A stretch of 64,000 nt of DNA from Sandaracinaceae bacterium (GTDB lineage Bacteria; Myxococcota_A; Polyangia; Polyangiales; Sandaracinaceae). Shown piece by piece: positions 33,931 through 55,655 of this stretch (positions are counted from its first letter, which is position 1; each line of letters starts with the position of its first letter). Where the stretch lies: NCBI GenBank assembly GCA_044220955.1, contig JBGAQA010000008.1:32001-96000 (forward strand), given 5' to 3'. The position numbers and the translations under genes were made by a program. Below the pieces are notes generated by a model. It was not told the DNA's origin, ran no database searches, and worked only from the letters and a program-made list of their open reading frames with translations.

Positions 33931-35843
33931 TTAGCCCCGGCTCTGCGCTTGTCCATTTCGGGCCAGGGCCGTTCTGAGGCCCGTCACACGGTGCGAAGCG
34001 CGCTTCACGCCAGCGCTCAGGAGCCGCGGATCTCCTACGATCAGCGCGGATCTTCGTGCTCGGGTGATGGCCGTGTAGAGCAGCGAGCGGCCGAGGAGCA
34101 AGGGGACGTCCTGGCTCGGGAGCAGCAGGGTCACGTGATCGTGCTCGGACCCCTGCGCCTTGTGGACCGTGGTCGCGTACGCGCGCTCGACGGTGCCGAG
34201 CACCAGCTCGAGCGGGTGGTGGACCAGCCGACCGCCGCGCACGAACACGGCCATCAGCCGCGGACCCTCGGGCGTCGACAGCGTCGCGACCATGCCCTGG
34301 TCGCCGTTCAAGAGCTCGCGGTCGTAGTCGTTGCGGTGCGCCAGGAGCGGCTCGCCCGGGACGAACCCCTCGGAGCCGGAGAGCTCGGCGGCCATGCGGC
34401 CGAGGCGCGCGTTCGCGCCGTCTGCGCTCGCGGCGTCGCGACCCGTGCGCGTCACCGTGAGCACCCGGCTGGCTGCCAGCTGCGTGAGGCAGCTCTCGAG
34501 GCGCGCGCGATCGAGCTGGCTCTGCATGTCGAACGCCGCGCGCGCGAGCTCGAGCACAGGGGCGAAGCGCTCGGCGAACGTCGCCCTGAGAAACGCCGCG
34601 CGCTCCCGCTCGAGCCGCGCGACGCCCGAGTCGTGCTGGGCCGCCTGGGCCGGGTCGTCGAGCGCGCGGACCGAGGCCGGGTCGAGCGAGCCGTCCCGGA
34701 TCGACGCGGCGACGCGGCGCACCTCGGCTCCGCCTGGATCGCGCGCGTCGGTCCGGTGGCTCACGCTCAGTCGCGCGACCGGCACGACGCCCGGCGCCGC
34801 CACCAGGTCGGCGAGCACCGCGCCGGGATCCACGGAGGGCAGCTGATCGGGGTCGCCCAGGAGCACGAGTCGCGTGTCCGGCGAGAGCGCCGCGACGAGG
34901 CGCTCGGCGAGCGCGAGGTCGAGCATCGACGCCTCGTCCACGATCACCAGGCGCTGAGGGAGCGGGTTCTGCCCGTGGAACGTGAACGCGCCGTCGGAGG
35001 GGCGGAACCCGAGCAGGCGGTGCACCGTCTCCGCGCGGGGCAGCCGGTCGAGCAGGGCGGTCTCGCCGCGCAGCGTGGCCGAGAGCGAGGCGAAGATGCG
35101 GTCTGCCGCCTTCCCGGTCGGTGCGGCGAGCGCCACCGACGCTGGAGCGACGATCGGGCGATCGCCTCCCGCGAGCGCGCGGACGATCGCGGCCACGATC
35201 GACGTCTTGCCCGTGCCGGGGCCGCCGGCGATGACGACCTGCGGGCCAGCCACGGCGGCCCGGAGCGCCGCGAGCTGCTCGGGGCCGAGCGCGGCAGGTC
35301 CCTCTGGCGTCATCAACGTTCCGGCGCGCTCCGTCGCGGCCTCCGTCGCGGTCCCCGCTGCGCCCGGAGCCGCCGCCGCTCGCGCCGCGAGCGAGCGGGC
35401 GAGGCGGTCCTCGAGCGCGACGTGGCGCGCGGCCGCGAGCCGTCCCTCGTCGAGCACGAGCGGCCGCGCCTCGCCCGGTCCCCCGACGATCGAGCCGAGC
35501 AGGAGCCGCGCGCGAGAGAGACCGTCCGTGAGGGCGTCGCGCTCGGCGGCGTCGAGCCCGAGCTCCTCCGCGCGGGCGAGCGCATCGTCACGATCTCCGA
35601 GCACGATCGCCGTTCCGCCGCGGTGGGCCGCGTCGAGCGTGGCGAGCACCACGAGGGTCGCGGCGAGCGGATCGCTCGGTCGTGGCCGCACGAGGCGCAC
35701 GAGCTCCCACGCGAGCGCGAGCGGCTCGGCGCCGAGGTCGCTCTCGGCGAGGCGCTCCGCCAGCGCGTGAGGGAAGGGCAGCTCGTCTCGGGCCGCGAGC
35801 CCTGCGCGGAGCCACGCGGTGCCGTGCGGCGTCAGCGTGCTCT

Positions 35844-35847
<4 letters not shown>
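33931..35847 (-). CDS. recD: Exodeoxyribonuclease V alpha subunit
   Basis: GGPGTGKT, AAPTGKAA, IVDEASM, GDPDQLPSV, TVHKAQGSE, LYTAITRAR. Confidence 0.95.
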
Positions 35848-39331
<3,484 letters not shown>

Positions 39332-39335
<4 letters not shown>

Positions 39336-42300
39336 CGCGCCGCTCCCTTGGACGGTGGGACGATCGCGGGCTCGTGCAGGTGCTGGAAGAAGAGCGCGAA
39401 GCGTTGCCCCACGAGCCGCGCGGGCGCGCTCGGCGCGGGGAGCCTCACCGCGCCGCGCACGGGGCCGTAGCGGCTGCGGCCACCCTCCCACTTGGGGCCA
39501 CGGACGACGTCGATCGAGCGCGAGAGGTCGCGCTCGAGCGTCGGGCTGCCCGAGACGAAGAGGTGGGCGACGCGCAGCACCGACTCGATGGGCATGAACG
39601 ACGTCTGCGGCTCGGTCGCGAGCTCCCTGGCCAGGCCGGCGAGCCAGCGCCGGGCGAGGTCGGGTCGCAGTGGCTTGAGCGTGACGCTCGTGCTGCCGTG
39701 GCGAGCGACGACGAGCGCGCGGCGCGAGCGAGCCGTCGCGCGGGGCTCGAGGCAGAGCGCGGCGTGGTCGACGAATGCGCGCAGTGCGAGCCGCAGGTCG
39801 GCGATCTGCTTGCGCTCGCGCGCGCGCTCGGCGCCGAAGTCGAGCTGGAGCGGCTCCTCCCCGCCGAGCAGCGGGGCCGTCGTGCCCACGAGCTCGAGCG
39901 CTCGGCCATCGGGGAGCGGTCCGAGCGCGATCGGATCGAGCGCGCGGCCCGCGGCGTCGCCGTGCTCGCGGCCCGCACCGAAGCGCACCGCCGCCGCCTC
40001 GCGGACGCCCGGCCGCGCGCGGCGAAGCTCGGCGAGCATCTGCTCGGCCTCGTCCGACGCGAGCGAGCGTGCCCGCTCACCGAACGCGCCGAGCGGGAAC
40101 GTCCCGTGCGCGACGCCGTGGGCCGCCAGCGCCTCGACGGACGTCGTCGCGCCGAGCGCCCCGAGCACCAGCGCGCGGACGACGTCGGCGTGCGTCCAGC
40201 GGTCGAGGTCGAATGGCTCCGAGTCGCCGCTCGCGTCGTCGTCGTCGTCCGCGCGCCCCACGATGCGGCGCGCAGCCGCCTGCACGGGGCAGTCGAGGAA
40301 GCGGCGCAGATCATCGAGCGTCACCCGGACCACGGCGCCGGCCTCGGCAGCCGGTCGCGGCGGGATCGGCGGCAGCAGGAGCCCGGCCCGGCGCGGATCG
40401 TCCGGGGCGAGCTCGCGCAGCAGATCCGCCAGCGGCAGGGCGCTGCTCGCCCAGCGCGCGCGCTCGGCGTCGCCGAGCACGCGAGCCCGAGCCTCCGCCT
40501 CGGCGATAGGGAACGCGAGCGTGGCGACGCGCGCCGCGAGGTCGCCCTCTCTCGCCGCGGCGAGCAGCGCCACGTCGCGGCGGAGCGGGGGGCGGGAGCG
40601 CTCGAGCTCCGGTAGCTGCGCGTGCAGCTCGCTCAGCGCGTGCGCGGGTGCGATGTCGTCGCCCGTCTGCTCGTCGCGCGCGACCCACGAGAGCACCAGC
40701 GCGTCCCGCGCCGACACGAGCGCCTCGAGCAGCGCCAGGCGATCGCGGTCCTCCGCCGTGACCTCGCAGGCCTGACGGCCCGTCTCCGCGCGCAGGTCCA
40801 GCCCCGTCTCCGGCTCGTGCGAGGGGAAGCGGCTCTCCCCGAGGCCGAGGACGAAGACGAGCCGGTGGTCGCCGGCGCGGTGCGGCGCGAGCGCTCCGAC
40901 GAGCACGCCGCGATCGCTGGCGCCGCGCGCCGCCGGGAGCGACTCGAGCGCGCGGAGCGCCAGGCTGGAGGCCGCGGCGCAGCCGAGCCTCGCCCCCCCG
41001 TCCAGCGAAGGTCCGCCCAGATCGCGCAGGGCCAGGAGCGCACGGCGATGCTCCGCCTGCTCCATCCCCTCGGTCACGACGTACGTCTCCGCGAGCGACA
41101 CGAAGAAGCGCGCCCACGCGTCGACGGGCAGCGACGCGCGGCGCGCAGCCGCCACGTCGGCGGCGAGCGAGCGGATCAGCGACACCACGCCGTCCACGCC
41201 TCCATCCAAGTCCAGCTCCTCGGGGAGCCATCGCTGCCCGTCCTGCTCGAAGAAGCGCTCGTCGCCGCTTCGCTCGCCGAGCATCACAGCGCCCAGCGCG
41301 AGCCGCTCGATCGCCTGCTCGAGGTGGATCGCGCACGGATCGGCCGCGTACGTGGCGGGCAGCTCTTCCGGGCCCGTGCCGAAGTACACGCCGAGGCGTT
41401 CGATCGCCAGCGCGAGCGCCTCCGGCTCGGGAGCGCCCGCCTCGCCGGCGCCCGGCAGCCGCGCGAGCACGAGCGGGTGGAGCAGCACGTCGAGCAGGCC
41501 CGCGCGCGTCGGCCCCGCCGCGACCAGCCGCACGAGGCGCACGATCACCTCGAGGACGCGGCTGCGCGAGGCGAGCGCGAGATCGACGCCGCTCCAGGGG
41601 ATGTCGCGCGCCTCGGCGAAGACGGTCTCGATCTGCGGGAGATAGAGGTCGCGGTCGCGCGCCGGGATCCAGACGGCCACGTCCGGGAAGCGCAGCGGCG
41701 CGCCGGTGGTCGCGGCCTGGTGAACGCGCGCCCAGATCTCGCCGGCGACCGCCTCGACCTCGCGGCGCAGCGAGGGCGCGGCGACGACGACGACGGAACC
41801 GTCCCGGGCGGCGCTCGCCTCCGCGGCGCGGATCGGGCGCCTCTGCCGGATCGAGGCCTGCAGGCGCCCGAGGCGCGTGCGCTCGTCGGCGTCGGCGAAG
41901 AAGCGCTCCGCCGCGTACTCGGTCGCCGCGTCGAGCGCTGCGACGTGCTCGCGGGCCGCGGTTCCCCACGACGCGAGCAGAGGGCTCTCGGAGCCGGTGT
42001 CGTCGGCCGAGCGCCGCGTCGCGTCCTCCCAGAACTCGGCGCAGGGCGCCGGCGTGAGCACCAGCACTTCGCCGCGCGTCGCGATGGCGCGCACGAGCTC
42101 GTGCTCGACGCGGGAGAAGTACGAGTAGCCGAGCACGACGAGCGGCACGCTCTCCGCGCGTCGATCCGGCGCCGCGAGCGCGAGCGCGCCCTCCGCGAGC
42201 GTCGTGACCGCGTCGTCGAGCGGACCGAGCGCCTCGCGCAGGAGCGCGCCCTGCCACCAAGCCCGGGCGCCCGGACCGCGCTCGCCGGCGCGCCAGGCGC

Positions 42301-42751
42301 GGACGAGCTCCGGCCGGTCGAGGGTGTAGCTGGCGTAGAGCCGTGCGAGGCGTGAGGCCAGCTCGCACGCGCGGCGCTCGCGCAGCGCGCGCGTGCCGCC
42401 GCCTTCGCCTTCGCCGTCGACGTAGGCGCGCACGGGCGCGAGCTCGTCGCTCGCGAGCCGCGCCGGAGTGAGCAGGACGTCCCGGACGAGCCCCTCGCAG
42501 AGGCTCGCCGAGAGCACCTCGCGCCCGGTCGCGCTCCGCACGCGCGCCTCGAGCTCCGCCGGCAGCCGCGTCAGATCGATCGCCGCGACGATCCCCAGCG
42601 CGCGCGCGAGCGCTAGCTCGGCGCGCCGCTCGACGACCCGGCTCGGCACGGCGACGACCAGCCGCTCGAAGGGATCGACGCGCGCGCGCACCCGCTCCGC
42701 GAGCACCTCCCACAACCGCTCCACGCGATCGGAGAAGACGACGCGCAGCAC
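39332..42751 (-). CDS. recC: Exodeoxyribonuclease V gamma subunit
   Basis: VFSDRVERL, SPLLASWG, RREVEAV, VLGLGESRFP, DLRRFLDCP. 1139 aa, first gene of recCBD. Confidence 0.92.
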
Positions 42752-42755
42752 GCGC

Positions 42756-43253
42756 TCAGCCCTTCCGGCGTCCCTCGAAGGGCGCCCGCCCGCGCACCAC
42801 GAGGTCCCACCACTTGAAGGTCATCGCGAGCGCCGCGTCGAGCTCGCGCGTCGCCTCGGTGGGCGCGAGCGTCGCGTCCGGGAGGCACTGCGCGGCGATC
42901 GGCGAGGCCGCGAGCATGTGCTGGATTCCCTGCGAGAACCCCTCGCCCGCATACACGAGGCAGACGGGCATCCCGAGCTGTGCGAGGTCCTGGAGCGCGT
43001 ACGGGATCTTCTCGTCTGCCGTGCCCGCGCTGTCCTGGTACTTGCACTCGAGCGCCATCGCGGTGCGCGTGGACTCCTCGATGATCAGGATGTCGATCCG
43101 TCGGTTCTTGCCGATGATCGTCTTGCCGAGCGGGACCTCGCGATAGATCGTGATGCCGCGGTGGCCGAAGCTCGTGGCCAGATACGACGCGATGGTGTTC
43201 GCGTACTGGGCCCCGGTCATGGTGACGGTCTTGCGCACGGCCGGTTCTCTCAC
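42756..43253 (-). CDS. Small PD-(D/E)XK nuclease, restriction-endonuclease-like
   Basis: YREV...RRIDIL...ALECKYQ...GTADEKIPY. Alternative start at ATG 43220. Confidence 0.85.
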   Translation of the reverse strand: MREPAVRKTVTMTGAQYANTIASYLATSFGHRGITIYREVPLGKTIIGKNRRIDILIIEESTRTAMALECKYQDSAGTADEKIPYALQDLAQLGMPVCLVYAGEGFSQGIQHMLAASPIAAQCLPDATLAPTEATRELDAALAMTFKWWDLVVRGRAPFEGRRKG

Positions 43254-43660
43254 GCGAGGAGTCGAAAGCCCAGCGCGCGCGCGGCCACGGCCATCTGCTC
43301 GTCGTGGGTCGCGAAGCGCAGGGCGGAGTCACGCTGCCGCAGCGCCAGCGCGCTGGCGAGGTGGATGGCGTCCAGCGTACGGAGGCTCGTCGGCATCGGC
43401 TCGGCAGCGCGGCGGAGGATGCGGCGATCGAGCACCGCGATCTCGAACGCCGACAGGATCTCGTCGACCGCGTCGCGCCGGTCGGCGACCTCGTCGTCGT
43501 CGAGCTCGCCCGCGAGCCGCTGCCGGTCGACGACCCGGAAGCACTCGACGCGCGCGAGCTCGCTCGTCACCGGGTCGCGCAGCTTCGACCAGCTGGCGAG
43601 GCGTGCCCGCTCACCGAACGCCACGCGCAGCACGACCGAGGAGTCGACGTAGGCCCTCAA
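43250..43660 (-). CDS. vapC: PIN-domain toxin (VapC family)
   Basis: YVDSSVV, SELARVE, LRTLDAIHLASA, ATHD. TTG start preceded by GAGGA. Confidence 0.9.
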   Translation of the reverse strand: MRAYVDSSVVLRVAFGERARLASWSKLRDPVTSELARVECFRVVDRQRLAGELDDDEVADRRDAVDEILSAFEIAVLDRRILRRAAEPMPTSLRTLDAIHLASALALRQRDSALRFATHDEQMAVAARALGFRLLA

Positions 43661-43670
43661 GGCTCGGTCC

Positions 43671-43925
43671 TCATCGCTCGCCGCGCTCGGCGCGGAGGGT
43701 GGCCAGCGTCGAGGCGCGCGCGCGGGTGGGCGCGTAGCGCTTCCGCCGGAGCGCACCGAACGACGTCGACGCGGGGATCACCGTGACGCCCTCGTCGTCG
43801 TCCACGGGCACGAGCCGTGCGACGGGTCGATCCCGGTCGGTGACGAGGATCGTCTCGCCGCGCTGCACGCGACGCAGCGTCACCGAGAGCTCGTCCTTCA
43901 GGCGCGCGATCTTGATCGACCTCAT
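43671..43925 (-). CDS. Phd/YefM antitoxin
   Basis: MRSIKIARLKDELSVTLRRVQRGETILVTDRDRPVARLVP. Confidence 0.9.
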   Translation of the reverse strand: MRSIKIARLKDELSVTLRRVQRGETILVTDRDRPVARLVPVDDDEGVTVIPASTSFGALRRKRYAPTRARASTLATLRAERGER

Positions 43926-43981: not shown

Positions 43982-46060
43982 TCACTTCTCCTCGTCCATC
44001 GCGAGCGTCAGCTGGCCCACGCGGCTCTCGGGCGTCGTCCGGATCCGCTCCGCGCCCGTCGCCCCGAGCCGCTCCTCGGCGATCGCGAGCGCCTTCTCGC
44101 TGATGTCGGCGCCGGCGAACGAGCGCCCGCCGAGCACCGCCGCCACCCCCGCGCTCGCCGTCCCCATGAAGGGATCGATCACCAGCTCGGCCGGCGACGA
44201 GGACTGCTCGATCAGCACGCGGCTCACCGCCACCGGCTTCTCGGTCGGATAGCCGCGGTGGATGCGCTTTTCCCGGATCAGGTCGGCGACCCCGAGGTCG
44301 GCGAGCTTCCGCTTCCCCTTCTCGAAGAAGAGGATCAGCTCGTACCTGGAACGGTAGTGGTATCCCATGCCGATCGCGCAATTGTGCGTCACGAGGCCGT
44401 TCGCGAGCACGAAGAGCTGGGCATCGTCGTCGATCGCGATGTCCACCAGCTCCTGCTCGGGTCCCGACTCGACCGAGGTGACGGTGAGCGGCTCCGCCCG
44501 GCGCTGCGGGTCGCTCCTCACCCGAAATCCTCCGGCGTGATCGTTCGAGAACGGCCGCAGGGTCGCGTGCTCTCCGCGCCGACGCAGCTCGCGTAGGGCG
44601 AAGTACGAGAGATCCGCCGACGCGAGGTTCAAGGTCGTTCGCTGCTCGTCGTGGGACCACGATCCGTCGCCCTCGAGCAGTCCGTCGAGGACGCCGTCAC
44701 GAAACGCTCGCGGCGCCCGATACACGGCAGGCTTGAAGTACTTGGTGGTCGCGTCGGTGCCTCCGACGAACGTCTCGACGAGGCGCCGCGCGATCAGGAA
44801 CGAGACGTGAACGATCGTCGATCTCGTTCCGTCTCGCGTCTCGATCCGGGCTCGGAGGCCCAGGCGGCGTGCCATGCGGGCCACGTGGGCGTGGAGGATC
44901 ACCTCGCGCTCGTGGAAGGCGAACGAGATCCCGGCTTGATCGACGCAACCTTCGGCGGCGAAGAGCCCGACGAAGCGGCCCCACGCGTGGTCGAGCTCGA
45001 TCGCGTCCGGAATCGTGCGTGCGGAATCGTTCGCCAGTGCCTGCCGGAACCGGCCGGTCGCGAGGTGCTCGAGCCCGAGCGCGCGGGCCCAGGTCGCGGG
45101 CAGGGCCCGCTTCGCCATCCATCGGCGCAGTCGACGCGCGGGAATGCCGAGCTCGGCGGCCATCGCTTCCTTGCTCCGTGCCTGCTCGCAGTGGCGTGCC
45201 TGGTGCGCGGAGCACGCGCGAGGGGTCTCGAACGATCGGCCGCAGAACAGGCACGAGCTCGCGCTCGGGAGCTCGAGCACGCGCTCCTCGTCGCTCAGGA
45301 GCGCGTCCAGCGAGAGCACGGCTTCGACGTCGCGATCGACCTCCGTGCTCGTGGCGAGCGTCGCGCCGGCCACCAGGGCGTGGGCCTCGACGTGCGACCC
45401 ATCCGCGAGGACGAACCGGTGCTCCGCCGATGAGATGACGTCGGTCCCGTCCGACAAGCCCAGTCGCAACGTCGGCGCGTGCGTCCGACGCGTCGCGAGG
45501 ACGGGAACCAAGCGCCCTTCGTGCGTTCGGACGCTCTCGCCACCTCGGACCTCCCCGATGGGTACGACGCCACGTTCCGTCCATACCGGCGTGGACGGGT
45601 GAAGGCACTTGTCCCACACCAGAGGCTTCCAGAACTTGAAGCCGGCCGCCTCGCCCGCCGGCTTGGCCACGAACGCCGTCTCCTGGTCGCAGTAGAGATA
45701 GAAGTGCGCGTTCTTCTTCAGCACGCGGTGCACCTCCGCGAAGAGCTCGGGGAAGCGCGCGTTCGGGAACACGGTGAACCAGTCGTTGCTCGACGACTTG
45801 CTGTGCGAGAGGCGCGTCGTCGTGCCGACCGCACGGTGCTTCTCCAGCGACTCGTAGGGCGGGTCCGTCACCACCAGATCCACCGACGCGTCGGGCAGGG
45901 TGCGCAGCCACGCGACGGCGTCGAGGCGGGTGAGCGCGTAGCGCGTGCCCGGCGGGGCACGCTCGACGGCTACCTCTTTCTCCTCGTCTCGGGCCACGGG
46001 ATGCTCCGTCGCCCATACCACGGGCTCGGAAGGGGTCAGGGAGGGATCTCGCTCGGTCAC
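43982..46060 (-). CDS. N4/N6 site-specific DNA methyltransferase (beta-class order) containing an intein
   Basis: VVTDPPY before the intein, then YPTEKP and VIDPFMGTAS after it. The start is uncertain (GTG 46060 or 45997). Confidence 0.92.
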   Translation of the reverse strand: MTERDPSLTPSEPVVWATEHPVARDEEKEVAVERAPPGTRYALTRLDAVAWLRTLPDASVDLVVTDPPYESLEKHRAVGTTTRLSHSKSSSNDWFTVFPNARFPELFAEVHRVLKKNAHFYLYCDQETAFVAKPAGEAAGFKFWKPLVWDKCLHPSTPVWTERGVVPIGEVRGGESVRTHEGRLVPVLATRRTHAPTLRLGLSDGTDVISSAEHRFVLADGSHVEAHALVAGATLATSTEVDRDVEAVLSLDALLSDEERVLELPSASSCLFCGRSFETPRACSAHQARHCEQARSKEAMAAELGIPARRLRRWMAKRALPATWARALGLEHLATGRFRQALANDSARTIPDAIELDHAWGRFVGLFAAEGCVDQAGISFAFHEREVILHAHVARMARRLGLRARIETRDGTRSTIVHVSFLIARRLVETFVGGTDATTKYFKPAVYRAPRAFRDGVLDGLLEGDGSWSHDEQRTTLNLASADLSYFALRELRRRGEHATLRPFSNDHAGGFRVRSDPQRRAEPLTVTSVESGPEQELVDIAIDDDAQLFVLANGLVTHNCAIGMGYHYRSRYELILFFEKGKRKLADLGVADLIREKRIHRGYPTEKPVAVSRVLIEQSSSPAELVIDPFMGTASAGVAAVLGGRSFAGADISEKALAIAEERLGATGAERIRTTPESRVGQLTLAMDEEK
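44381..45607 (-). mobile_element. Class 1 intein (409 aa) with LAGLIDADG homing endonuclease
   Basis: Junctions LVWDK/CLHPST and LANGLVTHN/CAIGMG. Block B SSAEHRF. Endonuclease motifs FVGLFAAEGC and VLDGLLEGDGS. Confidence 0.95.
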
Positions 46061-48602: not shown

Positions 48603-49045
48603 TCAGCGGCAGACGTACGTGCCGCTCGGGATCGCGGCGCACTCGGCGTCGGAGAGGCAGCCGAGGCCGCGGCAGACGCCGGCCTCGCAGGCGAAGTTGT
48701 CGGCGTCGGCGTAGGGGACGCCGAGCGAGCAGTCGTCCGCGTTGCTGCAGGCCTGGATGCACCCGGCGACGCCGCCACCGAGGTCGCGGCAGACGTAGGT
48801 TCCGCCGGGGATCGCGGCGCACTCGGCGTCGGAGAGGCAGCCGAGGCCGCGGCAGACGCCGGCGTCGCAGGCGAAGTTGTCGGCGTCGGCGTAGGGGACG
48901 CCGAGCGAGCAGTCGTCCGCGGTGCTGCAGGCCTCGACGCAGCCGGCGAGGCCTCCGCCGAGGTCGCGACAGACGTAGGTGCCGCTCGGGATCGTGGCGC
49001 ACTCGGTGTCGGACAGGCAGCCGAGGCTCCGGCACACGCCGGCGT
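48603..49045 (-). pseudogene. 5'-truncated Cys-rich repeat protein
   Basis: 60-aa unit GVCRGLGCLSDAECAAIP-GTYVCRDLGGG...ADNFAC. No signal peptide, and the repeat breaks off at ~49045. Confidence 0.7.
48606..49045. repeat. 180-bp tandem repeat, ~2.4 copies
   Basis: Units begin at 48606, 48786 and 48966 and are near-identical. Confidence 0.92.
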
Positions 49046-49558
49046 GGCTCTGCCATCGTCCTCTTCGTCTCGCTCGCCGTCGCCCTCAGCGTCGCCCTGG
49101 CCCGGCGCAGCGTGGGCGACCGCTCGTGGGCGCTCACGGCCTTGCCGTTCGTGCTCGTGGCGGCCGGGCACCTCGTTCTCGCTCTTCGCGCGGGCAGCGC
49201 GCAGAGCTCGCGCGACGCGGAGCGCGAGTCACGGGCTCGGGTGGTGCAAGCGAGGTTCGACGAGATCCCGGCGAGCTTCCGCCATCGCGGGAGCTTCGGT
49301 GAGCTCTCCGAGCAGCTCGACTCCGTCCTCGTGATCGACGACGCGTCGCAGTCGATCGTCCGCGTCGACCACGAGCGAGAGTCGCTGGTGGCCATCTGCG
49401 TGGGCCGGATCGAGGGCACGACGCTCCGGCTCGTCGACGACACGAGCGTCCGCGACTACGCGGACGAGAGCGGACGGACGGTCTACGAGCGATTCACCGT
49501 ACTGCCGGGCGAGGCGGCAGGACGCACGGACTGCGCCTACGAGCGCTACACGTTCTGA
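49046..49558 (+). pseudogene. 5'-truncated membrane-anchored hypothetical protein
   Basis: Two TM-like segments followed by the duplicated EQLDSV...YERYTF domain. No credible start, because the upstream DNA is the antisense of the Cys repeat. Confidence 0.6.
49309..49558 (+). repeat. 250-bp direct repeat, copy 1
   Basis: Identical by eye to 51543..51792 and ends exactly at TGA. Confidence 0.95.
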
Positions 49559-49563
49559 TCCCT

Positions 49564-51456: not shown

Positions 51457-51792
51457 ATGAAGGCCGCCCTGCATGTGCTCGCGGTCCTCGTCTGCCTCGT
51501 GTGGGCGGGCGCGTACTACCTGCGGGAGCTCGGCAGGGCTTTCGAGCAGCTCGACTCCGTCCTCGTGATCGACGACGCGTCGCAGTCGATCGTCCGCGTC
51601 GACCACGAGCGAGAGTCGCTGGTGGCCATCTGCGTGGGCCGGATCGAGGGCACGACGCTCCGGCTCGTCGACGACACGAGCGTCCGCGACTACGCGGACG
51701 AGAGCGGACGGACGGTCTACGAGCGATTCACCGTACTGCCGGGCGAGGCGGCAGGACGCACGGACTGCGCCTACGAGCGCTACACGTTCTGA
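51457..51792 (+). CDS. 111-aa hypothetical protein (one TM plus the duplicated domain)
   Basis: MKAALHVLAVLVCLVWAG joined to EQLDSV...YERYTF. May be internally deleted. Confidence 0.55.
   Translation: MKAALHVLAVLVCLVWAGAYYLRELGRAFEQLDSVLVIDDASQSIVRVDHERESLVAICVGRIEGTTLRLVDDTSVRDYADESGRTVYERFTVLPGEAAGRTDCAYERYTF
51543..51792 (+). repeat. 250-bp direct repeat, copy 2
   Basis: See 49309..49558. Confidence 0.95.
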
Positions 51793-51848
51793 GCCAACGG
51801 GCCGCAGGCCGGAGTCGCTCTGAGGTAGGGTTCGCGACGAGGTGGGGC

Positions 51849-55068: not shown

Positions 55069-55335
55069 ATGGTGAAGGCGATGCCGTCGGCCGCGATCGA
55101 CACGCGGGGGTCCAAGCGTCCGGTCAACCTGACGCTCGATGCGGAGCTCGTGAAGCGAGCGCGAGGCATGTCGAGCAACCTCTCCGCGCAAGTGGAGTCG
55201 CTGCTCACGGAGTTCGTCGAGAAGCGTGAGGCCGAGGATCGCGCGCGCAGGGGCCGCTCCGAGCGTGCGGCGCGCTCCTGGAACGCGTTCGCCGAGCGAC
55301 ATGGCTCGTTCGCCGACGAGTTCTCGACCCTCTGA
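55069..55335 (+). CDS. ccdA: CcdA-family antitoxin
   Basis: KRPVNLTLDAELV...NLSAQVE...WNAFAERHGSFADEFSTL. Alternative start at 55081. Confidence 0.88.
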   Translation: MVKAMPSAAIDTRGSKRPVNLTLDAELVKRARGMSSNLSAQVESLLTEFVEKREAEDRARRGRSERAARSWNAFAERHGSFADEFSTL

Positions 55336-55655
55336 TGAGCCAGTTCGACGTCCACCGGAATCCGGGCACGAACCGCGAGGCCATCCCGTTCGTGGTCGTG
55401 GTGCAGTCGTCGAGCCTCGACGGCTTTCGTCGGCGCGTCGTGGTCCCGCTCGTGCGCAAGTCGCTCCTCGGCCAGGTCCATCAACCCCGTCTCAACCCGT
55501 CCTTCACGGTGAAGGGGACCGCGGTGGTGCTGCACCCGCTCGAGATCGTCTCGGTCCCGCTCGAGAGGCTGGGCAAGCCGATCGCCTCGCTGGCCAGCCG
55601 CGGCGCGAAGATATCGGACGCGCTCGACGAGCTCCTGAGTCGCGTGTACGACTGA
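55335..55655 (+). CDS. ccdB: CcdB-family toxin
   Basis: MSQFDVHRN, PFVVVVQS, RRVVVPL, RLNP, ISDALDEL. TGATG coupling to ccdA. Confidence 0.9.
   Translation: MSQFDVHRNPGTNREAIPFVVVVQSSSLDGFRRRVVVPLVRKSLLGQVHQPRLNPSFTVKGTAVVLHPLEIVSVPLERLGKPIASLASRGAKISDALDELLSRVYD

Follow-up and report, generated by a model that had tools for sequence, protein, structure and literature searches.

The intein and its host gene

The window is the whole stretch of DNA that was analysed: 64,000 nucleotides of contig JBGAQA010000008.1 (positions 32,001 to 96,000, assembly GCA_044220955.1) from a Sandaracinaceae bacterium. On its minus strand lies a gene for a beta-class N6/N4 DNA methyltransferase (methylase; PF01555), and inside this gene an intein. 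The element is of interest because Cys+1, the nucleophile that follows the intein, is missing from most alleles of the same gene that carry no intein (empty alleles). The features of gene and intein are as follows.

45608..45997, minus strand: methylase N-extein (beta-class N6/N4), ending in WDK; start uncertain, GTG at 45997 taken
45854-45865, minus strand: DPPY motif of the N-extein
44381..45607, minus strand: class 1 intein of 409 amino acids (HINT domain, accessory region and LAGLIDADG domain), from open reading frame, Pfam, TIGR01443 and structure model
45605..45607, minus strand: intein C1 codon TGC; Cys in 111/111 full-length copies
45419..45430, minus strand: block B S-x-x-H (S60, H63); H63 in 111/111, S60 in 100/111
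45020..45286, minus strand: accessory region (residues 108-196) with a putative zinc knuckle, C119-x2-C122...H135-x4-C140, then three helix-turn-helix (HTH)-like helices
44492..45001, minus strand: double-motif LAGLIDADG endonuclease domain (residues about 203-372); PF14528; I-DmoI match with Z 16.0, root-mean-square deviation (rmsd) 2.7, 154 aligned
44948..44974, minus strand: LAGLIDADG motif 1 FVGLFAAEG (212-220) with catalytic E219; E in 106/111
44663..44689, minus strand: LAGLIDADG motif 2 LDGLLEGDG (307-315) with catalytic D314; D in 110/111
44381..44386, minus strand: terminal His408-Asn409; 111/111 full-length copies (H/S-N required by the parser)
44378..44380, minus strand: Cys+1 codon TGC, first residue of the C-extein; Cys, Ser or Thr in just 14/280 empty alleles
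43982..44380, minus strand: methylase C-extein
44153-44176, minus strand: S-adenosylmethionine (SAM)-binding motif DPFMGTAS

The intein is a single open frame of 409 codons that runs from C1 (CLHPSTP) to His408-Asn409, is followed by Cys+1 and lies within a methylase precursor of 671 amino acids. It has the sequence marks of a class 1 intein (C1, H63, D389, H408-N409 and Cys+1). Block B reads S60-A-E-H63, with Ser replacing the usual Thr, D389 is the block F Asp, and the endonuclease acids E219 and D314 are present together with the block D Lys K289. The Pfam model LAGLIDADG_3 matches above its cut-off (E 1.5e-7) and Hint_2 weakly, below its cut-off, while TIGR01443 for the intein C-terminus gives 17.1 bits against a cut-off of 15.6. 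An earlier reading of the letters alone (the sequence-only reading) had placed the intein at exactly these coordinates and had named C1, the block B His, the terminal His-Asn, C+1 and two LAGLIDADG motifs, all of which are borne out; it overlooked the zinc-knuckle/HTH region at 108-196 and a Phd-VapC gene pair described below.

An AlphaFold model of the intein with 22 aligned inteins as input has a predicted local distance difference test score (pLDDT) of 88.9. Its best structural match is the TliVMA intein (Foldseek E 1.9e-17; Z 27.8, rmsd 4.2, 306 aligned), and the full-length matches also include intein endonuclease II, PI-PfuI and PI-SceI. Mini-inteins match with Z scores of 17-20 (rmsd 1.6-2.1 and about 125 aligned), so that the predicted HINT fold joins the N- and C-terminal regions. 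Third codon positions have a GC content of 0.86 within the intein compared with 0.94 and 0.96 within the exteins. Both junctions are bridged by contigs from independent activated-sludge runs (X12 and X3), so that the intein is no assembly artefact. A promoter and terminator scan found nothing.

The endonuclease looks alive. Both catalytic acids are retained in 105 of the 111 full-length inteins, and the ratio of non-synonymous to synonymous change (dN/dS) in the LAGLIDADG domain is 0.08-0.31 in four unsaturated pairs; between the window's intein and its congeners this ratio is unusable at synonymous differences above 0.55. Judged from the residues present, DNA cleavage is predicted, and the precursor would splice through C1, His63, His408-Asn409 and Cys+1.

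The accessory region sits between the N-terminal HINT part and the endonuclease and could not be matched to a known accessory domain. All four putative zinc ligands (C119, C122, H135 and C140) are present in 111/111 full-length inteins, and the structure model has helices at 146-176. Pfam matches are sub-threshold (zf-C2H2_4, E 0.0045; YdaS HTH, E 0.002), and an ESM Atlas search with the region gave no usable match. When 1.84 billion proteins were searched with the intein, the matches outside the methylase family mostly started near position 190 or covered the N-terminal HINT domain only. Deletions in 17 shorter inteins touch the region, with partial or whole loss, and two of these inteins also lack the endonuclease. 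P0101 and P0103-P0106 are such natural deletion forms. The C2HC/HTH region may bind zinc and DNA; the accessible text of PMC8966425 describes archaeal inteins whose accessory domains modulate cleavage.

In the host protein the DPPY motif precedes the SAM-binding motif, and excision of the intein joins KPLVWDK to CAIGMGYHYR between the two. The sequence-only reading had predicted this junction, and alignment with intein-free congeners shows a contiguous WDK-x-x-IGMGYHYR. The insertion site WxK/x-x-IGMG (the slash marks the insertion point) is shared by 142 occupied and 280 empty alleles; a preference of inteins for conserved sites is described in the part of PMC2814812 that was available. The closest titled relatives of the methylase are Sandaracinaceae, Polyangiales and Kofleriaceae records. 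The SAM-binding motif is DPFMGTAS in place of DPFxGSG, a form common to intein-free congeners (L004) and family members.

For P0126, an empty homologue, the structure model matches CcrM, M.BceJIV, MboIIA and RsrI (fold match E 2e-16). CcrM (6pbd), M.MboIIA (1g60) and M.BceJIV (8urk) share the fold and the order of DPPY before the SAM-binding motif, and the WxK strand aligns with the W117-K118 region of CcrM. They differ in being just 20-25% identical to the window's methylase, a putative N6A or N4C enzyme whose partner is a PF20472 nuclease. In a profile alignment the last Lys of the N-extein aligns with chain position 126 of CcrM, that of K118 (an 8-residue offset set by the DPPY Asp). In CcrM, K118 takes part in holding the target adenine and bases are read by Loop-45 (119-133), according to the available portions of PMC6787082 and PMC13092597. 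The intein is inserted directly after the Lys equivalent to K118, at the start of the equivalent of this DNA-recognition loop. The mature methylase thus very likely needs splicing, as had been proposed from the letters, since a 409-residue insert at this position should block activity until it is spliced out.

Distribution and the residue after the intein

The alleles were parsed into 142 intein-bearing and 280 empty ones, with 45 records left unparsed. Loci of two unpublished genomes and duplicate loci were excluded from allele counts and trees; unpublished G026 is one row in the nuclease tallies given below (62/80 loci, the 89-hit motif count and 16/17 family genomes), and unpublished G723 is one row in the 401-genome order tally.

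At this one methylase site 128 distinct inteins were found, 111 full-length and 17 shorter; the 104 full-length rows that were compared are on average 53% identical. Of 279 precursor matches, the best 120 almost all carry an intein at this site. Genome and metagenome loci together with these matches supply the 142 occupied alleles. Carriage is about 1% of the sampled genomes, with the intein in 6/401 of the order and 5/401 of the class (own genome included in both), and it is present in two of five congeners and absent from three. Two further matches in the order are to a different intein. A different LAGLIDADG intein with a Ser start (WVGE/SLPY...VHN/SEE) is found in a Cdc48/FtsH-like AAA ATPase of the same order (L205, G499:C872; L206, G505:C27).

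No other copy of the intein was found in the own genome, where one weak HINT-like match lies on C229. An empty allele of the window's own strain was not seen in the contigs of eight runs, and contigs drop rare variants. G923 has the intein-bearing gene on two contigs (L255 and L258) with near-equal scores, either by duplication or by assembly redundancy. Divergent or degenerate members at the same site, mini-inteins among them, are P0244, P0254, P0259, P0274 and P0247; one free-standing remnant among the degenerate members lacks C1 and the terminal Asn.

A phage or plasmid vector was looked for and not found. Two pattern scans of IMG/VR gave two weak unrelated matches, such scans of viral collections being insensitive and no proof of absence; 50,697 phage records held no full-length match, and among the top plasmid matches no record covered 80% of the query. 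Empty methylase alleles occur as orphans in 66 viral contigs and on plasmids. The viral orphan alleles L147, L152, L168, L176 and L189 read WDK-CA-IGMG, the same as the spliced junction of the window, and no intein was found in the viral contigs. Such alleles may be where the intein first landed.

Cys+1 is present in all 142 parsed intein-bearing alleles (the parser demanded this residue). This is expected of occupied alleles; the finding is that the empty sisters mostly lack it, since only 13 of 280 have Cys, one has Ser and none has Thr. Fourteen residue types occur at +1 in the empty alleles, mainly Val (65), Glu (42), Gln (38) and Arg (38) but also Leu, Met and Lys. The position is the 9th most variable of 221 columns, with neighbours that are mostly near-fixed (-8 to -1 and +3 to +7 partly fixed by the parser). 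The +1 codon is two to three base changes away from TGY in 83 of the 97 distinct cellular empty alleles with DNA, so that point mutation cannot easily flip it between close relatives.

The +1 residue is coupled to the intein state. An extein tree was built from 370 rows, after identical and short-extein rows had been removed from 422, with the +1 and +2 columns excluded. On this tree the intein state changes at least 66 times, and of 20 independent supported pairs 16-17 show a joint switch of +1, with none the other way. Monophyly of the intein-bearing alleles in the family-level clade is rejected by the approximately unbiased (AU) test (p 8e-5; 9 versus 53 rows). For 36 occupied alleles an empty neighbour at least 90% identical exists, and just six of these neighbours carry Cys, Ser or Thr at +1.

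Individual alleles illustrate the coupling. All nine empty cluster mates of P0009 (intein, CQ) read VQ or IQ, and the closest is identical to it at 301/305 extein residues. P0010 (CK) stands among empty alleles with EK and QK, and its intein groups with that of P0065, at an extein identity of 65%. Both P0009 and P0010 are nested within starred clades of otherwise empty alleles. P0012 (CK) lies beside an EK empty allele, and in sludge run X3 the intein allele coexists with the empty alleles of two relatives that read ER and VK. Seven cases were informative on the +2 residue: it matched only the empty sister in four, both the sister and the nearest intein relative in one and neither of them in two, and in no case the intein relative alone.

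Homing and the alternatives

The best reading of these data is probably that of a selfish homing intein with routine co-conversion of the +1 codon. The LAGLIDADG domain would cut intein-free copies of the methylase gene, and repair templated by an occupied copy would introduce the intein and with it the following Cys codon, in place of the Val, Glu, Gln, Arg, Leu, Met or Lys codon of the empty allele. The HINT domain would splice after translation and leave a methylase product that differs from the empty allele at one tolerant position. LAGLIDADG enzymes leave 4-base 3' overhangs, and co-conversion of flanks is general in homing according to the accessible part of PMC3943268. Were the +1 codon to lie in or beside the overhang, each round of trimming and donor copying would replace it. 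Occasional precise loss of the intein, between two TGY codons, would leave a Cys scar; the two TGY codons that flank the window's intein lie in similar 7-base contexts. The cellular empty alleles with Cys+1 may be scars of such loss, or preferred targets. Recent movement is suggested by L207 and L213, whose synonymous difference is 0.08 in the intein and 0.27 in the exteins, and by P0021, whose intein is 83-87% identical to that of a group with exteins only 73-76% identical.

In a more specific form of this reading, the family colonised a site that lacked a nucleophile. The endonuclease, aided by the zinc-knuckle/HTH region, would read the conserved codons on both sides and ignore +1, so that every invasion writes Cys, with a tract as short as one codon. 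We consider this form quite possible, though somewhat short of an even chance. If it is true, dozens of myxobacterial lineages would harbour a natural homing system that as a rule makes its own splice junction, placed in the recognition loop of a methylase from a candidate restriction-modification system.

Several points weigh against homing with co-conversion. Intein and extein distances correlate (r 0.72), and the intein is closer than the extein in just 65 of 5356 pairs (headed by P0098, of 1072 amino acids with an aberrant C-terminus, which was disregarded), so that much of the transmission runs vertically or among close kin. LAGLIDADG cleavage fidelity depends heavily on the central four bases, as stated in the available text of PMC3943268; should the +1 codon lie among them, this speaks against indifference to it. 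The window's own clade of 21 rows has Cys+1 in 5 of 14 empty alleles, so that for the window's copy the recipient may already have been a Cys allele, with no conversion involved. Codons ending in A or T at +6 are enriched in intein alleles (15/25 compared with 25/97; uncorrected p 0.002 among 40 positions, kin not being independent), a hint that conversion tracts are not always one codon. The sampling also matters: the allele samples are best-hit lists and not random draws, the parser demanded Cys+1 and also H/S-N at the intein's C-terminal end (four unparsed intein proteins had Cys+1 too), and parsimony counts of the intein state cannot separate gain from loss.

It is possible to explain the coupling without conversion if the endonuclease needs TGY, non-Cys alleles are immune and the intein is lost by recombination; lock-step switching would then come from overwriting by empty non-Cys alleles or from recombination of whole segments. 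The clustering of Cys+1 empty alleles beside occupied ones fits this, since the nearest row is an intein-bearing allele for 7 of 8 cellular cases and the window's clade has the five just mentioned. So does the haloarchaeal MCM-d intein, for which Pro+1 alleles are largely resistant in the accessible part of PMC10643990. The scarcity of Ser and Thr at +1 (0.4% together, tied lowest among 30 hypervariable columns) is what host escape might give, but it may be structural, because viral homologues, in which no intein was found, also have Ser or Thr in 0/51. Against this explanation, P0009 and P0010 would require several separate losses in their otherwise all-empty clades, the intein of P0010 groups with alleles of distant exteins, and Cys in 13 of 280 empty alleles leaves scarce targets for an endonuclease under purifying selection. 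We regard it as unlikely. A conditional switch, which the sequence-only reading had proposed, is unsupported and clearly less likely still. Here splicing would be conditional, perhaps controlled by zinc or redox state acting on Cys1 and Cys+1 or on the C2HC motif, and would gate methylation and protection from the linked nuclease. An insert in the DNA-recognition loop probably makes the precursor inactive, the nuclease is adjacent in most cellular loci (62/80 genome loci and 20/28 intein-bearing metagenome loci, several of the remaining ones being short), and mini and endonuclease-less forms exist (P0099 and P0122). Zinc-inhibited splicing has reportedly been described for another intein (PMC7360933). 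However, the intein is patchy even within the genus and rare in the order and class, and the endonuclease is retained, which a switch does not need. Absence from three of five congeners, at least 66 state changes and endonuclease residues kept in 105/111 are as expected of a parasite. The nuclease is also unlinked in several family members, G030 has it without the methylase (in an assembly 90% complete with 600 contigs), and delayed methylation beside an active restriction enzyme would be harmful.

The last alternative is a relic: splicing and homing would have been lost, and the methylase would be dead or dispensable in the window genome. The FMGTAS motif in place of FxGSG and the Phd-VapC pair that separates methylase from nuclease might point that way. 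Yet all splicing and endonuclease residues are intact, the same motif is found in intein-free congeners, the extein differences to congeners are 0.03-0.06 at non-synonymous sites compared with 0.3-0.4 at synonymous sites, and the 671-residue frame is kept in two further cluster members. A relic is therefore highly improbable.

The residue behind an intein is usually a Cys, Ser or Thr already conserved in the host gene, a dependence considered to limit the sites that inteins can inhabit. The hundreds of natural occupied and empty alleles seen here, some of them 99% identical, suggest that the limit is routinely bypassed, and the question of how inteins colonise new sites becomes directly testable. 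A difference at +1 between the two kinds of allele may also exist elsewhere, for instance at a mycobacterial RecA intein site, and the feature would then be less rare.

Related systems and neighbouring genes

The sole comparable case found in print is the haloarchaeal MCM-d intein. In the part of PMC10643990 that was available, the nucleophile is at +1 in occupied alleles and missing from most empty ones, co-conversion of +1 is invoked, and non-nucleophile alleles are treated as nearly resistant. The difference is that Pro dominates the empty MCM-d alleles and co-conversion (Pro to Ser) is rare, whereas the methylase site has 14 residues and switches at most gains or losses.

TliVMA (7qsu/7qss), PI-TkoII or intein endonuclease II (2cw7/2cw8), PI-PfuI (1dq3) and PI-SceI share with the window's intein a HINT domain and a double LAGLIDADG fold. 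TliVMA and PI-TkoII have an HTH-like extra putative DNA-binding region, as described in the accessible text of PMC8966425, and the window's intein likewise has an extra region. The identity to known class 1 inteins with accessory domains is just 8-20%. In the window's intein the accessory region precedes the endonuclease and has the invariant C-x2-C...H-x4-C, while the VMA accessory domain follows the endonuclease and no such motif is mentioned for it in that text.

Inteins in methylases had been held to be reported mainly from phages. This stands in so far as actinophage cases exist: DNMT-1/2 (PMC5050341), PMC9957025 and bioRxiv 10.1101/2025.01.02.630785, in their available parts, describe N6/N4 inteins in PF01555 methylases that are patchy and have a phylogeny unlike that of the host gene. 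Those inteins are phage-borne, in contrast to the window's intein, which has no full-length match in the phage records or in IMG/VR. Bacterial cases qualify the claim, since the portion of the PMC4760082 supplement that was accessible has four inteins in Dam, two in Dcm and two or more in N6_N4 methylases (Planktothrix; Cyanobacteria/Firmicutes). These are likewise cellular methylase inteins, but a handful compared with 128 at one site here. The rows available from that source include no myxobacterial case, and Haliangium ochraceum is intein-negative in them. PMC6390638 has no methylase intein.

The present family is the largest of cellular methylase inteins among those found in the searches made. 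The site is common in sequence databases, and no paper on the site or the intein family was found in the literature search (subscription journals, InBase, REBASE and bioRxiv supplements, which were out of reach, may hold one). The intein is real, intact and probably mobile, and no description of its site was found. Methylase inteins and +1 co-conversion are both in print, and co-conversion as an apparent rule was not found in the literature.

The genes downstream of the methylase are as follows.

43671..43925, minus strand: Phd/YefM antitoxin between methylase and nuclease (PF02604, E 7e-8)
43250..43660, minus strand: PIN/VapC toxin of the same inserted pair (PF01850, E 3e-11)
42756..43253, minus strand: PD-(D/E)XK nuclease PF20472 (E39, D54 and E69-C-K71 intact), the usual downstream partner of the methylase
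39332..42751, minus strand: recC, then recB (35844-39491), then recD (33931-35955); chromosomal context

The methylase is syntenic with nuclease-recC-recB-recD in four of the five congener regions examined, which supports a chromosomal site and the earlier view that a chromosomal methylase holds a full-length intein of the homing type. The linkage to a nuclease, also claimed earlier, is real in genomes: the PF20472 nuclease follows the methylase in the 62 loci counted above and in 0/66 viral loci. The methylase is present in 16 of 17 nuclease-bearing family genomes, not always adjacent, and G030, the genome with nuclease alone, is an incomplete assembly. The nuclease residues E39, D54, E69 and K71 are at least 95% conserved (89 hits). 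PADLOC has no model that matches the nuclease and no paper on PF20472 or its pairing with the methylase was found, so that restriction is a candidate function only. Nuclease and methylase form a candidate uncharacterised restriction-modification system that is widespread and well conserved in myxobacteria-type genomes.

The Phd/YefM-VapC pair is an insertion between methylase and nuclease (43250-43925) in the window genome. In 40 other methylase loci compared, the Phd/YefM antitoxin was not seen and the PIN gene had no match. Between methylase and nuclease two congeners have a different gap of 3.6-3.7 kb and two have no gap, and this spot upstream of recC looks like an insertion hotspot.

Elsewhere in the window there is a chromosomal toxin-antitoxin pair, CcdA-CcdB (55075-55655). 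Two identical direct copies of 253 nucleotides (49309-49561 and 51543-51795), 2234 nucleotides apart and each the 3' end of a plus-strand open reading frame, are due to duplication or are an assembly artefact. Tandem repeats of 180 nucleotides at 48606-49048 on the minus strand encode a Cys-rich repeat protein.

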